From the NCBI GenBank assembly GCA_965203275.1, contig OZ241865.1, positions 32,001-96,000 of the forward strand: a DNA stretch of 64,000 nt. The letters are read 5' to 3'. The position numbers were made by a program, and so were the translations under genes. Under the pieces are notes generated by a model that was not told the DNA's origin, did not search any database, and was given only the letters and a program-made list of their open reading frames with translations. This document shows, piece after piece, positions 37,642 through 60,297 of this stretch (its first letter is position 1; each line of letters starts with the position of its first letter). The stretch comes from Bdellovibrionales bacterium (lineage in GTDB: Bacteria; Bdellovibrionota; Bdellovibrionia; Bdellovibrionales; JAUICD01).

Positions 37642-38761
37642 TTAAGTCTTTGTTATTTTGAGGATCTCTTCTTGAGAAAGTCCAGAACATTTCATAATAG
37701 TTTGTAAGTCTATTTTATTTTTGATCATATTTAAAATAAGATCTCTTTGCCCTTCCTGTCGCCCTTCCTGTCGCCCTTTTTGCAACCCTTCTTGTAAGCC
37801 CTTTTGCAATCCTTCCTGTCGCCCTTCTTGCAGGCCTTTTTGTCGGGCATGATTTTGAATAATCTCACTAAATTTTAACATAACATCTCCTTGCCTTTGT
37901 TTTATTTCTTCCCCTACTTCTTCCATTGTTTTGATTAAAAGCTTTTCTGCCATGTTTCCATCGTATGTGCAGAAATACCTTACCAAATCATTTGTCATCT
38001 CTATTATATCTAACTTATCACCACTTTCATAGTCCTTTTCATTAATAATATCATCTTTTTGTAATCTACCCACTTCTCTTTCGACAATTAAAATATTTTC
38101 CCTTATTTGTTTCACTAAAAGTAAACTAGCCTCTGGCTACTTTTGGGCATTGCTCTGACAGCTGTCGCTGTCCAAAAAGAGCAATGCCTCAAAAGTTCGT
38201 TTACTTTTAGTAAAGAGGATCTCCTTGCTTCTTAACACCATGTTAAGGAAAAAGAGTTTCATTTGTAAACCCGCTTGCTCTTGAGGTAATAAAAAAACTT
38301 TTTCCTTAACATGCTGTAAAGGAATAAAAGGATCCTCTCTACTCAAAATGAACAAGCTTTTGAGGTAGCTAGCCTTTTACGACGGCGGTAGCCGTCGGGC
38401 TAGCTACCCAAAAGTGGCCAGAGGCCAGTTCATTTTGAGTGAAAGAATAAAACAAGAATGAACGGATTGTACTTTGATGCTCTATGTTGAAAACAAGCTT
38501 TACAATCAAGTGAGAATTCTTCAATTTAACCGCAACAACTAGGTCACAAAGACCTTTCATATATCCAGAAAACTCTCCTTTTTCTATTGTGAGCGTTTTT
38601 AAATCTATGATGTTTAAGAGTTTCGAAGGCAATGTGATTTCAAGAAAGGCCATCGCAATAATTTTTTTTGAAAAAAGCCGTTGAAAAGCAATGTTATGAG
38701 GATGGGCTTTTGAAGAAGTGTCCTGTTGCATTTGTTTGATCTGCTTTGATTTTGATGGCAT
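37642..38761 (-). pseudogene. Rpn/YhgA-like (PD-(D/E)XK) protein split by repeat-element insertion
   Basis: N-part PHNIAFQRLFS...CDLV...IEHQS; C-part GLQEGRQEGLQKG...MIKNKIDLQTIMKCSGLSQEEI; interrupted at ~38109-38444. Confidence 0.8.
38109..38444. mobile_element. Head-to-head pair of structured elements inside the rpn gene
   Basis: Bounded by TTTCACT...AGTGAAA with the central spacer gagtttcatttgtaaacccgcttgctc also seen at ~4260, ~7985 (rc), ~54555 (rc). Confidence 0.8.
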
Positions 38762-45238: not shown

Positions 45239-46302
45239 AACTCACACAAACTGTCAAAAAGGGCGGATGTGCTTCAAAGCTTCCAGCAAAACATTTAAAG
45301 TCCATTTTACAAGAACTCTCTTTGAGATCTTCACCTCATTTATTGACACAATTTCAAACATGGGACGACGCTGCTGTGTGGGATTTAAAAAACAATGATT
45401 TTAAAAATAATACAGCCGCTTTAGTTCAAACTTTAGATTTTTTTACACCTATTGTAGATGACCCTTATACCTTTGGACAGATTGCAGCAGTCAATGCCAT
45501 GAGTGATGTGTATGCTATGGGGTGTCAGCCTCGTTTGACACTTTGTATTTTAGCTTTCCCTGCAAAAACTTTAGATATAGAAGTCATAAAACCTTTAATG
45601 GAAGGAGCTTTAGAGAGAATTCATAAAGCAGGAGCCGTGTTGGTAGGAGGTCATACCATCGATGATGAAACATTAAAATTGGGTTTTGTTGCCAGTGGTT
45701 TTGTAGATAAAAATCATTTTTGGAGTCATGCTAAGGCTCAAATAGGTGATCAACTGATTTTGACAAAGGCTTTAGGGGTAGGGACTTTAGTTTCTGCTTA
45801 TAAAAAACAAAATACACATCAAACAGAAAGATGGCTTAAAGGAGCTATCTCTAGCATGATTCAATTAAACAATGTGATTGATTTTTGTAAAATCAGAGAT
45901 GTACATGCTGCCACTGATGTGACAGGGTTTGGTTTTTTAGGACATGCTTGTCAAATGGCTAAAGCAAGTGGAGTTTCGTTTCAGTTAGATATTCAACAAA
46001 TTCCTCAATTACCTGGAGCTATGGATTCATTAAAGCAAGGTCACCTTGTCAAAGCCCATTATACCAATGCAGATTATGTAAAAGACCTTGTAGATTATGG
46101 GGTAGCTAAAGAAGAAATGAAATCGCTTTTAAATGACCCTCAGACCTCTGGGGGATTGTTACTGGCTGTTCCTGCTAGTTGTGCTTCTTTGTTTGTCTCT
46201 CGATTAAGCGAAGCATTTCCATGTACTCGAGTTATTGGAGATGTGACTGGAATAAAAAATAAATTAGTACATCTTTTTTCAGCAGATAAAAATGAGTGTT
46301 AA
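45211..46302 (+). CDS. selD: Selenide, water dikinase (Cys-type)
   Basis: GGCASK, DDAAV, DFFTPIVDDPY.FGQIAA.NAMSDVYAMG, GGHTI, TDVTGFG, DPQTSGGLL. Confidence 0.96.
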   Translation: MAKQQPYTIKLTQTVKKGGCASKLPAKHLKSILQELSLRSSPHLLTQFQTWDDAAVWDLKNNDFKNNTAALVQTLDFFTPIVDDPYTFGQIAAVNAMSDVYAMGCQPRLTLCILAFPAKTLDIEVIKPLMEGALERIHKAGAVLVGGHTIDDETLKLGFVASGFVDKNHFWSHAKAQIGDQLILTKALGVGTLVSAYKKQNTHQTERWLKGAISSMIQLNNVIDFCKIRDVHAATDVTGFGFLGHACQMAKASGVSFQLDIQQIPQLPGAMDSLKQGHLVKAHYTNADYVKDLVDYGVAKEEMKSLLNDPQTSGGLLLAVPASCASLFVSRLSEAFPCTRVIGDVTGIKNKLVHLFSADKNEC

Positions 46303-47230
46303 AAAACAACGAGGATATCCTCTCTACTAAAAGTGGTCAGGCTTTTGAGGCGATGACCATTTTATCGACGTGAAATAAATATCTTGTTTCCTTAACATGG
46401 AGTTAAGAGACGAGAGGATCCTTCTTACTAAAAGTGGTCAGGCTTTCTAGGTTGCCAGCAGATGAAAGAACTTTTCCCTTAACATCGCGTAAAAAAAAGA
46501 AATGATCCTTTCTACTAAAAATAAACGGATTTTTGAGGCAATCAGCCTTTGATCGACGGCGACAGCCGTCGGGCTGATTGCCCAAAAACAGCCAGAGGCT
46601 GGTTTATTTTTAGTGAAAAAGATAAGAAGGCGAATAGCCTTCGGCTGGCAACCAGAAAGTGACCAGAGGTCAGAGCACTTTGAGTGAACCGGAGGCATGA
46701 TTTATTTTGAGTGAAACAAACCCTTAACATCGTATTTTTCCGGGATCCGGGGTCTGGGATCCGGGATCCGGGGTCTGGGATCCGGGATCCGGGGTCTGGG
46801 ATCCGGGATCTGGCAACCCGGCAGACAGGCAAGAATGAAGCGAATATCTTGTTTCCTTAACATGGAGTTAAGAGACGAGAGGATCCTTCTTACTAAAAGT
46901 GGTCAGACAGCAAGCTTCTCTGAAGCTTGCCATGTAACAACACTAGGCAATGACCATTTTGTCAAAGGCGAAAGCCTTTGCGGTCATTGTCCAAAAGTGG
47001 CCAGAGGCCAGTTCACTTTGAGTGAACATAAAAAGAACTTTTTCCTTAACATGGTGTTAAGAGACGAAGAGATCCTCCTTCCTAAAATTGAACAGGCTTT
47101 TGAGGCAGTTAGCCTTTGATCGACGGCGACAGCCGTCGGGCTAACTGCCCAAAAGTAGCCAGAGGCTAGTTCAATTTTAGGGAAACAGACCACTTTTAGT
47201 GAAACAGAGGCTGGTTTACATTTAGTGAAA
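46295..47230. repeat. Cluster of structured elements including nested insertion and 21-bp higher-order heptamer repeat
   Basis: Nested unit 46464-46619; (gggatccggggtctgggatcc)x3 at ~46742-46805; complete unit 47041-47186. Confidence 0.92.
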
Positions 47231-47263
47231 TGATGAGGATCAACGAAGTTAGACAATGGAAGG

Positions 47264-48112
47264 TCAATTAAAGGAAAGTACTTGATCCCATTGGATTTTA
47301 AGAGGCAATAACTTAAGTTGAGATATTAAAATATAAGTTTTAGCAGGATTGAATTTAGATATTTTAAGACAACCATTTTGAATGAGCTTTCCTGTATCCT
47401 CTTGAGTCCATCCAAACCGTTTATCATTTAAGACATCTAAAACTTCTTCTCTAAGTCTTTTAGAGTCAATACCAGAAATGGTCACATTATAATAAAAATC
47501 ATCTGAATCTGAAACATCTGAGGCATTAGCATAATCTGTAACCTCTTGAATAGGATTTGAAGGCTGGCTGTCTATCTTAGGAGTTTGTACTTTAGAAGAA
47601 TCCAACTGAGATGGCGTTTGTTCCAATGTTGGTGGATCTTCAAGAGGTGGATTTTCTTGTGATGCTTGTTCAAGAGATGCTTCTTCAAGAGGTGATTGTT
47701 CAAGAGATGGCTCTTCAAGAAATGGTTCTCTAAGAGATGGATCTTCAAGAGAGGATTGTTCAGGAGAGATATCTTCAGAAGTGGTGGAGTTTTTATCTTG
47801 ATCTGTACTCTGTTCCGCTTCACTTTCTATTTGCGATGAAGAAATATCTTCTTGTAGAGGAGAAAGAGAGGCACTCGATGTATGTTGTTCCTGATCTTCG
47901 ACAGGTTGCATGTCATGGCTTTCATTGATCTGTTGTTTCGGATGATCTTCTGGTTCATCTGGAAATTCTTCAGAATCAGAAGGTGTAGGAGGTTGCTTTT
48001 GTACGTTGCCTTCAAAGTCAATAAAGACAAAGGTATGACAAGAAGGACATTGTGTCAATCCATAAATATTATTATCAATCTCTGCATGACAACTTAAACA
48101 TTGGGATGGCAT
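47264..48112 (-). CDS. Zinc-ribbon protein with acidic pentapeptide-repeat linker
   Basis: CxxC...CxxC N-terminus, EQSSL/EDPSL/EEPSL repeats. Confidence 0.8.
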   Translation of the reverse strand: MPSQCLSCHAEIDNNIYGLTQCPSCHTFVFIDFEGNVQKQPPTPSDSEEFPDEPEDHPKQQINESHDMQPVEDQEQHTSSASLSPLQEDISSSQIESEAEQSTDQDKNSTTSEDISPEQSSLEDPSLREPFLEEPSLEQSPLEEASLEQASQENPPLEDPPTLEQTPSQLDSSKVQTPKIDSQPSNPIQEVTDYANASDVSDSDDFYYNVTISGIDSKRLREEVLDVLNDKRFGWTQEDTGKLIQNGCLKISKFNPAKTYILISQLKLLPLKIQWDQVLSFN

Positions 48113-59909: not shown

Positions 59910-60281
59910 ATGTTTTCTTAACACGATGTTAGAAATAAGGAAATACTATTTCCGGGATCCGGGATCTGGCAACCCGGCATCAGATCCCGGGATACCTGCT
60001 TGCCGGATCCCGGGAATAAATATCTTGTTTCCTTAACATGGTGTTTATCCCAGAATCCGGGATCCGGGATCCGGGATCCGGGAATCGGGCATCAGAAGGA
60101 AATGTTTCCTTAACATGGAGTAAAAAAACGAGGAGATCCTCCCTACTAAAAGTGGTCAGACAGCAAGCTTCTCTGAAGCTTGCCATGTAACAACACTAGG
60201 CGATGACCATTTTACCGATGGCGACAGCCATCGTGGTCATCGCCAGAAAGTGACCAGAGGTCAGACCACTTTTAGTGAAAC
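59910..60281. repeat. Heptamer arrays plus one structured element carrying an extra hairpin
   Basis: gcaagcttc-tct-gaagcttgc insert at ~60163-60183, same as ~46910-46930. Confidence 0.9.
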
Positions 60282-60297
60282 AGCAAGCGGTGATTTT

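Follow-up and report, generated by a model that had tools for sequence, protein, structure and literature searches.

A branched 150-bp hairpin repeat with reassorted stem alleles in a Bdellovibrionales genome

Repeat unit and locus

The window analysed here is a stretch of 64,000 nucleotides from the genome of a Bdellovibrionales bacterium (assembly GCA_965203275.1, contig OZ241865.1, positions 32,001 to 96,000), and its positions 47041-47186 hold a complete copy of a repeat unit of about 150 bp, hereafter the focal copy. This copy sits in a 960-bp repeat cluster between convergent genes, with the end of an AIR-synthase-family gene (at 46302) on one side and an unknown 282-aa open reading frame (ORF), then an SMC gene, on the other. 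Units of the family are branched and 141-148 bp long; their fold rather than their stem sequence is preserved, and their concentric stem modules are reassorted among units. The source genome (G000) is a single contig of 2,567,810 bp with 35% GC and a completeness score of 90%, and was compared with a genome of the same genus (G001) and with further relatives (G002, G003 and G004).

The first-pass annotation, made from the letters of the window alone, had described a fixed layout H1-H2-S1-S2-S3-bulge-S4-S3'-S2'-side hairpin-S1'-GAAA, which is the layout found at 47041-47186 (Table 1). The five S1 allele pairs that it quoted (from the units at 47041, 37480, 8010, 28935 and 41271) were all found as quoted in the alignment; the bulge, given there as 5 nt, measures 6-8 nt. 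Constant throughout the family are the 5' anchor TTTCCTTAACAT, the GATCC mini-palindrome, the T-rich bulge, the G-N-N-A apical loop, the CC-AGA-GG centre of the side hairpin and the 3' end GTGAAAC. Exact anchors number 999 in the genome, and the 3' arm of H1, with which the anchor pairs, is degenerate in many copies (A·C cells). A small ORF within the unit was considered and rejected, the ATG of the H1 loop not being conserved (the loop reads ATCGT, ATGTA with an immediate TAG, and others).

Pairing and covariation analysis

Folded as single-stranded DNA (ssDNA), the focal copy reaches -44.6 kcal/mol on the + strand and -44.7 kcal/mol on the - strand (z of -9.8 and -10.7, respectively), and none of 200 shuffles folded as well. 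The same architecture was obtained on both strands with RNA parameters.

Pairing was scored genome-wide on 732 complete units aligned to the profile, using 46 pairs (H1 and the consensus fold). Watson-Crick combinations occupied 31,378 of the 33,672 pair cells, with 1,074 cells of G·T, 690 of A·C and 425 of other mismatches. A single fixed T·G pair at the base of S1 accounts for 725 of the G·T cells and H1 for 38, while H1 is also the source of 534 A·C cells; within the stems, 96-99% of the pairing is Watson-Crick. Each variable pair in S1-S4 and in the side hairpin occurs as two or three Watson-Crick types, as in pair 73-110, for which there are 287 units with G-C, 286 with A-T, 150 with T-A and 9 exceptions.

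Covariation was measured on a sample of 46 units, comprising 30 of the 32 complete window copies and 16 of the 21 from relatives; three long copies (179-191 bp), one 162-bp copy and three duplicate rows were left out. In this sample 96.8% of the cells are paired, against 80.1% in shuffles, and 321 cells are changed on both sides, against 95 in shuffles (neither observed value was reached by any of 500 shuffles), with compensatory changes at 30 of 41 pairs; these counts ignore the shared descent of the copies, which are not independent. When the partner was shifted by 1-3 columns as a slide control, 34-48% of the cells paired.

An alternative fold in which the 5' arm of S1 pairs with the 5' arm of S2 was also considered; of its variable columns, only one shows four-way covariation, the other assorting freely. 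Because this alternative pairing is not consistently supported, the long-hairpin fold is taken as the conserved one.

The first-pass annotation had proposed that the fold rather than the stem sequence is kept, and this proposal is supported by the pair counts over 732 units, by the linkage of arms described below and by the shuffle and slide controls. Some process maintains the fold while the stem sequences are left to differ; selection, a copying mechanism and module-wise recombination are all possible causes.

Linkage between stem modules

Linkage between modules was expressed as normalised mutual information. The two arms of S1, 88 nt apart, reach 0.71, and the arms of S2, S3, S4 and the side hairpin reach 0.82, 0.78, 0.92 and 0.87, respectively, whereas the 5' arm of S1 and S4, only 40 nt apart, reach 0.37. 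The linkage of an arm to its partner (0.71-0.92) thus exceeds its linkage to closer linear neighbours. S1 arms are perfectly complementary in 580 of the 732 units, the commonest S1 allele combines with at least seven S3 alleles, and half-unit chimeras joined at the hairpin apex occur. Concentric stem modules are reassorted among units.

The neighbouring complete unit at 46849-47027 has mismatched S1 arms and carries an extra mini-hairpin of 37 nt (46907-46943) in place of its S2 5' arm. The same mini-hairpin takes the place of this arm in some other units, among them the long copy at 60102-60282 and copies in contig regions L048 (3298-3335) and L050; present in the source genome and in G001-like contigs, it behaves as an optional module.

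Table 1. Features of the focal copy and of its repeat cluster (window coordinates)
Feature	Position	Strand	Remark
Nested group: 5' fragment; then a second unit, its two parts lying on either side of a complete third unit that interrupts it at the bulge	46297..46690	+	
Companion module B: degenerate anchor, CCGGGATC-type octamer repeats, closing leader ...GAATATCTTG	46721..46851	+	
Neighbouring complete unit	46849..47027	+	Co-oriented with the focal copy
Purine-rich leader CATAAAAAGAACTTT	47027..47040	+	Links the preceding unit to the anchor; similar leaders ahead of most anchors
H1: near-invariant anchor TTTCCTTAAC, 5-nt loop ATGGT, weaker arm GTTAAG	47041..47061	+	
H2: GATCC-centred mini-palindrome region	47062..47080	+	Placed from sequence and alignment columns
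S1 5' arm CCTAAAATTGAAC	47081..47093	+	Partner GTTCAATTTTAGG
S2 5' arm CTTTTGAG	47097..47104	+	
S3 5' arm GCAGTTAGCC	47105..47114	+	
T-rich bulge TTTGAT	47115..47120	+	6 nt; one site where other units interrupt a unit
Apical hairpin S4, CGACGGC-GACA-GCCGTCG	47121..47138	+	G-N-N-A loop
S3 3' arm GGCTAACTGC	47139..47148	+	
S2 3' arm CCAAAAG	47149..47155	+	Most frequent end point of truncated 5' fragments
Side hairpin TAGCC-AGA-GGCTA	47156..47168	+	Near-invariant CC-AGA-GG centre
S1 3' arm GTTCAATTTTAGG	47169..47181	+	
3' terminus GAAAC	47182..47186	+	Same end meets unrelated gene DNA at some junctions
Two stacked orphan 3' ends from other alleles, AGACCACTTTTAGTGAAAC then AGAGGCTGGTTTACATTTAGTGAAA	47187..47230	+	

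Module B shares the anchor of the unit, which is followed in it by tandem octamers of the CCGGGATC type and by ...GAATATCTTG ahead of the next anchor. It follows 136 anchors genome-wide and is found on both flanks of the four-helix-bundle gene cassettes described below.

Genome-wide search and gene context

The H1 motif, allowing up to 2 mismatches, occurs 47 times in the window against 0.10 expected. A profile hidden Markov model (HMM) was built from 545 complete units defined by a regular expression; in the window it gave 55 matches in 17 clusters (32 complete and 23 partial), and a covariance model gave 50 matches at E<=0.01, including the 30 used in building that model. Judged by these two counts, the first-pass estimate of about 40 copies in about 15 clusters was about right.

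Over the whole genome, the profile HMM returned 1,616 matches, corresponding to 1,389 non-overlapping ones that cover 159,246 bp (6.2%) and group into 500 clusters. They comprise 732 complete units, 308 5' fragments, 266 3' fragments and 76 internal fragments, with seven between classes. Since 15-mers occurring at least 4 times make up 19.6% of the genome, the unit is the largest of several repeat families and not the sole one.

Gene calls were crude (ORFs of at least 90 aa), and by them 2,137 of 159,440 repeat bases (1.3%) fall in predicted ORFs and 4 of the 500 clusters lie inside one. Occupied intergenic regions amount to 125 of 337 convergent, 124 of 337 divergent and 246 of 1,191 tandem regions. 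Copies are balanced between strands along the chromosome (718 on +, 671 on -), and no replichore pattern in unit orientation was seen genome-wide, the GC skew being itself weak. Local tandem amplifications were observed on the source contig (C1) near 280640-281377, 315197-315611, 606453-607390 and 920544-921506, where whole units (147-bp period), 5' halves (89-bp period) or blocks of unit plus flank (270-395-bp periods) are amplified.

Junctions between units and with genes

An identical twin exists for 104 of the 545 units, and one 144-bp sequence is found at 8 dispersed loci, with at least three contexts on its upstream side and six on its downstream side. Adjacent units are in the same orientation in 808 pairs, head-to-head in 124 and tail-to-tail in 29; about 70 of the head-to-head pairs share a conserved core of 40-51 nt. 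Only 20 of 101 pairs of adjacent complete units are near-identical, the remainder being as different as random pairs, so that local duplication is not the main source of the arrays.

Units are interrupted by other units at the bulge between S3 and S4, in the S4 loop, and after S3' and S2'. A matching remainder beyond the insert was found in 35 nested cases, including one in the focal cluster. A stack-based test matched 68 of 166 outer 5' fragments to an orphan 3' arm of the cognate S1 allele, against 28 +/- 4.7 (maximum 44) in 1,000 shuffles, the orphan-terminus pattern being loose (395 of 1,001 termini are without recognisable context). The purine-rich leader of 10-25 nt that separates a truncated unit from the next anchor goes with one particular allele upstream but with varying units downstream; in addition, several composite junctions are seen more than once. 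On both these grounds, the anchor behaves as a joining point.

Five genes of the Rpn family are interrupted by a head-to-head doublet that replaces 139-343 bp of coding sequence, in three independent events. The example in the window is an Rpn/YhgA (Transposase_31) gene (37642-38761, - strand) in which units at 38107-38446 replace about 325 bp. The 3' ends of the units (GTGAAACA...) abut the interrupted Rpn-family gene on both sides. Two copies of a 102-aa four-helix-bundle gene are likewise cut off by a unit and its leader. No flanking direct repeats were seen, by eye, at gene junctions or around solo copies, and no terminal inverted repeats, the 5' and 3' ends not being inverted copies of each other.

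Distribution in related genomes

Searches with BLAST (using the unit as query) and with the covariance model detected the unit in 3 of 151 genomes of the order (G000, G001 and G004), and did not find it in G002, G003 or the 146 others. In a second set of 151 genomes, drawn from the phylum and lacking G001 and G004, only the source genome matched. The comparison with other Bdellovibrionota genomes that the first-pass annotation had called for returned, apart from G004 (see below), no matches outside this lineage in either sample. Plasmid and phage records, searched by BLAST with the unit, contained no match. An anchor scan of named genome contigs yielded, among the matches listed (at least 15 loci), 11 in one Bdellovibrionales metagenome-assembled genome record and 4 single, chance-like matches elsewhere, and so carries little information on distribution. 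A literature search found no papers on repetitive extragenic palindromic (REP) elements of Bdellovibrionota, and among the papers listed on intergenic palindromic repeats none described the family.

Units of G001 have the same architecture and constant bases, with stem alleles of their own. Arbitrary G001 sequence totalling 92 kb contained 12 matches, which would correspond to a few hundred copies in that genome. The unit-bearing contigs of G004, C11 and C4 (for which regions L049 and L048 are listed, respectively), are collinear with G001 and 85-91% identical to it; against G003, the supposed congener of G004, C11 has 71% identity and C4 has no match at E<=1e-40. From these alignments, C4 and C11 were probably mis-binned from a G001-like organism, which makes occurrence in a second genus doubtful. 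In the genomes searched, the family was thus found only in this genus-level lineage.

The spacer between the ribosomal-protein genes rpsQ and rplN contains no unit in G000 (spacer of about 40 bp) or in G003, four units in G001 and three in contig C11 of G004; in the latter two the units are co-oriented with the operon. In G001 the spacer array (region L075, 2400-3230) has a period of about 200 bp, made of a unit and a 52-bp copy of the 3' end of rpsQ, and successive periods carry units of different alleles.

Search for partner enzymes and associated genes

The first-pass annotation had suggested looking for copies beside a transposase, HUH, reverse transcriptase or recombinase gene. In the source genome no HUH transposase of the Y1 or IS91 Y2 kind and no reverse transcriptase gene was detected; recombinase genes are present there. 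For PF01797 (Y1 transposases, including RAYT and IS200/IS605), none of 6 scored candidates in G000 was a match, while the control search was positive in 6 of 14 reference genomes. The reverse transcriptase domain PF00078 had no match in G000 and three in G001. IS91 Y2 (PF04986) and IS110 (PF01548) transposases gave no match in G000, and the only match there to PF07282, looked for as an indicator of TnpB, is a zinc-ribbon stretch inside a 1,365-aa ORF. The GIY-YIG domain PF01541 has one match in each of G000-G004, in an ORF of 612-653 aa; since this is the size of UvrC, no homolog of Ssn is recognised in these five genomes.

RecA is present in G000, as are two tyrosine recombinase genes (PF00589). 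No match to PF00589 was seen in the 1.6-Mb genomes G003 and G004, so that no Xer-type recombinase was detected in them. Mobile-type genes of G000 comprise nine ORFs of IS256, two DDE elements and six resolvase-domain ORFs; none of the ends of IS256 or of the two DDE elements resembles those of the unit.

Rpn/YhgA genes amount to 43 ORFs or fragments in G000 (25 Transposase_31 and 18 PDDEXK_2). A PDDEXK_2 representative scores above the curated cut-off of TIGR01784 and a Transposase_31 representative below it (43.8 against 52.1 bits). In G000 nearly all of these genes have a unit at no more than about 200 bp, whereas 30% of ORFs overall have one at no more than 300 bp. Among 41 relatives, PF04754 was found in 4, all in the family of the source organism; G000 has 16 matches to it and G001 has 19. 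A link between Rpn genes and units was nevertheless rejected, since the counts of unit-bearing regions in G001 are 6 of 16 for those centred on Rpn genes and 5 of 20 for arbitrary ones of equal size, and G003 has 16 Rpn genes and no unit.

The four-helix-bundle gene (PF05635/TIGR02436, 102 aa) has 11 near-identical copies in G000 (regions L058-L068), each within 160 bp of a unit. It was rejected as a partner, being multi-copy in relatives that lack the unit (18 copies in G021, 11 in G025 and 19 in the true G004 contigs). A cassette with this gene is present in one and absent from the other of G001 and contig C4 of G004 (L078 against L048), and at its left junction the sequence resembles a unit 3' end fused straight to an anchor. 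Other multi-copy families of G000 are 32 ankyrin-repeat ORFs, 29 small coiled-coil ORFs in tandem arrays, a 12-member family of 640-914 aa with repeated stretches resembling helix-turn-helix motifs, each member of which is flanked by units, and unannotated families of 557 aa and 334 aa. These many multi-copy gene families suggest a host-associated lifestyle.

Two further roles were considered for the unit and rejected. As a mimic of dif, the site of chromosome dimer resolution, the H1 anchor shows no specific likeness: it differs at 2-3 of 11 positions from the right arm of the dif consensus, and such 11-mers occur 1,549 times in the genome. The consensus gave one candidate site (G000:1027690), and the test is a weak one. 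As an intervening sequence of the 23S rRNA gene, the unit gave weak partial matches only, outside the gene.

Interpretation and alternative explanations

We read the unit, with moderate confidence, as a selfish and non-autonomous DNA repeat, propagated by way of a folded strand or cruciform together with its few constant bases, for which resident copies are the preferred landing or recombination sites. The unit would spread as DNA, and an activity acting in trans would copy or join it, reading its constant ends, its loops and its folded shape and not the sequence of its stems. Because such an activity would read shape, copies that fold well would keep multiplying and the two arms of a stem would travel together. 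Landing or recombination at resident copies would give rise to arrays, nested copies and stacked orphan 3' ends. Mobility or recent copying is indicated by the identical copies at dispersed loci, by the rpsQ-rplN spacer (empty in G000 and G003, occupied in G001 and in contig C11 of G004) and by unit 3' ends that abut truncated Rpn and four-helix genes; a preference for resident copies is indicated by the excess of co-oriented neighbours, the low share of near-identical adjacent pairs, the nested cases and the 5' fragments matched by a cognate 3' arm. As to the material that moves, the first-pass annotation had left a choice between structured RNA and ssDNA. DNA, single-stranded or as a cruciform, is favoured and structured RNA disfavoured, because both strands fold equally well, wobble pairs are rare (about 1% of cells are G·T once the fixed T·G pair is set aside) and orientation follows no rule.

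Several observations weigh against this interpretation. No candidate enzyme was found, and no clean pair of empty and filled junctions, target duplication or terminal inverted repeat could be defined. Only 41% of bracket pairs match in the stack-based test, and many of the arrangements that look nested may be copied composites or recombination products and not separate insertions. The distance kept from genes is measured on the crude ORF calls mentioned above. Some features would also be shown by an RNA: conserved loops, covarying stems and G-N-N-A apical loops are expected of one; complete units in tandem intergenic regions lean 55:45 toward the orientation of the genes (207 co-oriented, 166 opposed); and outside H1 and the fixed pair G·T cells outnumber A·C cells by 311 to 156, a count that is dominated by two positions, is not independent across copies and is not corrected for shared descent. 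The units within the ribosomal-protein operon of G001 must, moreover, be transcribed.

A rather unlikely alternative, though the main rival, dispenses with a dedicated enzyme and invokes host processes alone: RecA-dependent gene conversion and unequal crossing-over at the constant segments, replication slippage and template switching at hairpins. Template switching converts imperfect palindromes to perfect ones (quasi-palindrome correction). RecA is present, none of the six kinds of mobilising enzyme tested was found, and traces of such events can be pointed to: leaders that are specific to one allele, composite junctions that recur, near-identical tandem duplicates (the 20 of 101 adjacent pairs), half-unit chimeras joined at the apex, and the G001 array, whose period with the 52-bp 3' end of rpsQ looks like a duplication of unit plus flank. 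Recombination alone, however, does not seed about 500 intergenic sites or place identical 144-bp copies at 8 loci, and random conversion tracts should often part the arms of S1, yet these match perfectly in 580 of 732 units amid reshuffled inner modules.

A more specific form of the preferred DNA-based interpretation, which we hold only tentatively and regard as quite unlikely, is that the unit is the substrate of an undescribed system that copies or joins DNA, reads the branched hairpin or cruciform through its shape and a small set of constant loop and end bases, and reassorts its concentric modules without any of the known hairpin-repeat enzymes (RAYT, Ssn, IS200/IS605, IS91, IS110 and reverse transcriptase), possibly through a nuclease or recombinase expanded in this lineage.

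It is improbable that the family consists of structured-RNA genes or of cis-acting RNA parts, such as a small RNA or a hairpin that stabilises or processes an mRNA, in which case the covariation would be due to selection on the RNA fold. Besides the RNA-like features listed above, this explanation can draw on the units of the rpsQ-rplN spacer in G001 and in contig C11 of G004, which follow the direction of the operon. The two orientations are nonetheless about equally frequent beside genes, and mismatches in H1 favour the opposite strand. Typical RNA families have far more wobble pairs than the about 1% of cells found here. The roughly 650 truncated, nested or chimeric copies and the 6% of the genome that the family occupies are hard to explain in this way. 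The novelty claimed in the first pass also held against Rfam, in which no family reached its gathering threshold over the whole window; at E<=10, the region 46250-47300 gave chance matches only (11-23 bits, against thresholds of 33-245).

It is very improbable that the expanded Rpn/YhgA nucleases, of the PD-(D/E)XK type, cut hairpins or cruciforms and so drive a RecA-independent spread and reshuffling of units. In favour of it are the Rpn expansion of G000, the near-universal closeness of these genes to units and the restriction of PF04754 to the family of the source organism; E. coli Rpn proteins, moreover, raise RecA-independent recombination (PMC5350276; the paper mentions neither hairpins nor palindromes). 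The near-chance association in G001 and the unit-free G003 with its 16 Rpn genes argue against it, and the closeness may only mean that dispensable genes tolerate insertions, since several Rpn genes of G000 are themselves broken by units.

A known system with a missed or lost partner, be it a miniature inverted-repeat transposable element (MITE) of a resident DDE insertion sequence (IS), a REP or REPIN served by a RAYT, or an element of the IS200/IS605 type, is the least probable explanation and can hardly be entertained. The asymmetric ends, subterminal hairpins, absence of target duplication and insertion in one fixed orientation beside a short conserved flank (...CTT or ...CTTG) do recall IS200/IS605 behaviour, and the roughly 70 head-to-head doublets with their 40-51-nt core recall REPINs; against this, G000 has no PF01797, TnpB, IS91 Y2 or IS110, its IS256 and DDE element ends are unrelated to those of the unit, its copies are mostly co-oriented (808 against 153 inverted), unlike the alternating orientation in BIMEs (PMC2817692), and the genome is one contig of 2.57 Mb, though scored 90% complete.

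The family matters beyond its classification. Earlier families of hairpin repeats led to enzymes that act on folded single-stranded DNA (RAYTs for REPs, Ssn for NTS/SRM). The approximately 1,400 copies are an unusually rich record of natural 'mutagenesis', in which stems exist in several complementary versions and a few loop and end bases stay constant. Should a dedicated enzyme exist, these constant bases show what it reads, and the two sister genomes narrow down the places in which to search; should there be none, the family shows clearly how a structured repeat filling 6% of a genome can be built and maintained by host recombination and hairpin-templated repair alone. The repeat also disrupts genes, comes between genes of a ribosomal-protein operon in a relative and accompanies multi-copy gene cassettes, and by these effects it shapes the genome of a probably host-associated bacterium.

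Comparison with known repeat systems

The first pass had set the family apart from catalogued repeats, and it does lie outside them by the hallmarks of REP/RAYT systems, MITEs and Ssn/SRM repeats that were looked for. With several known families it nonetheless shares features.

Rickettsia palindromic elements (RPEs) and the Correia, ERIC, BOX and RUP elements are hairpin repeats of 100-160 bp, often without a known transposase and, in the case of BOX, modular; such MITE-like repeats are abundant in host-associated or small genomes. RPEs, however, are frequently inserted in frame within coding genes, whereas the units avoid ORFs (1.3% of bases) and truncate the genes that they meet. Correia elements have terminal inverted repeats and a target duplication, and a MITE in general has terminal inverted repeats matching those of a parent IS together with a target duplication; neither was seen for the unit. 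We know of no concentric reassortment of stem alleles in RPE, Correia, ERIC, BOX or RUP.

In the attC sites of integrons, the substrate is set by the fold of one DNA strand, with variable stems, short conserved ends and co-oriented arrays. The unit may resemble attC in these respects; unlike attC, most units adjoin other units with no ORF between them and form about 500 dispersed clusters rather than one array. An integron would also have an IntI integrase and an array of ORF-attC cassettes; only 2 matches to PF00589, the tyrosine recombinase domain, are present in G000.

Closer likenesses are found with REPs, bacterial interspersed mosaic elements (BIMEs) and REPINs and their RAYT enzymes, which also occur as hundreds to thousands of intergenic hairpin repeats in clustered mosaic arrays with some inverted doublets, and whose stems likewise remain complementary as their sequences differ. 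A REP is a simple palindrome of 20-40 bp with a GTAG or CGTC head, whereas the unit is branched, measures 150 bp and has no such head, and the source genome contains no RAYT gene. In BIMEs, REPs alternate in orientation (PMC2817692), whereas the arrays of units are co-oriented.

The NTS/dRS3/SRM hairpin repeats have the small Ssn GIY-YIG single-strand nucleases as partners, whose genes they usually flank, and SRM motifs are about 30 bp long (PMC11893778). Like the unit, they lie in hundreds of copies around genes, and their Ssn enzyme recognises folded single-stranded DNA; their length is far from the approximately 150 bp of the unit, and no Ssn homolog was found here. Although the family lacks the tested membership features of each, it works most like the REP/BIME/REPIN repeats or the hairpin repeats of the Ssn type.

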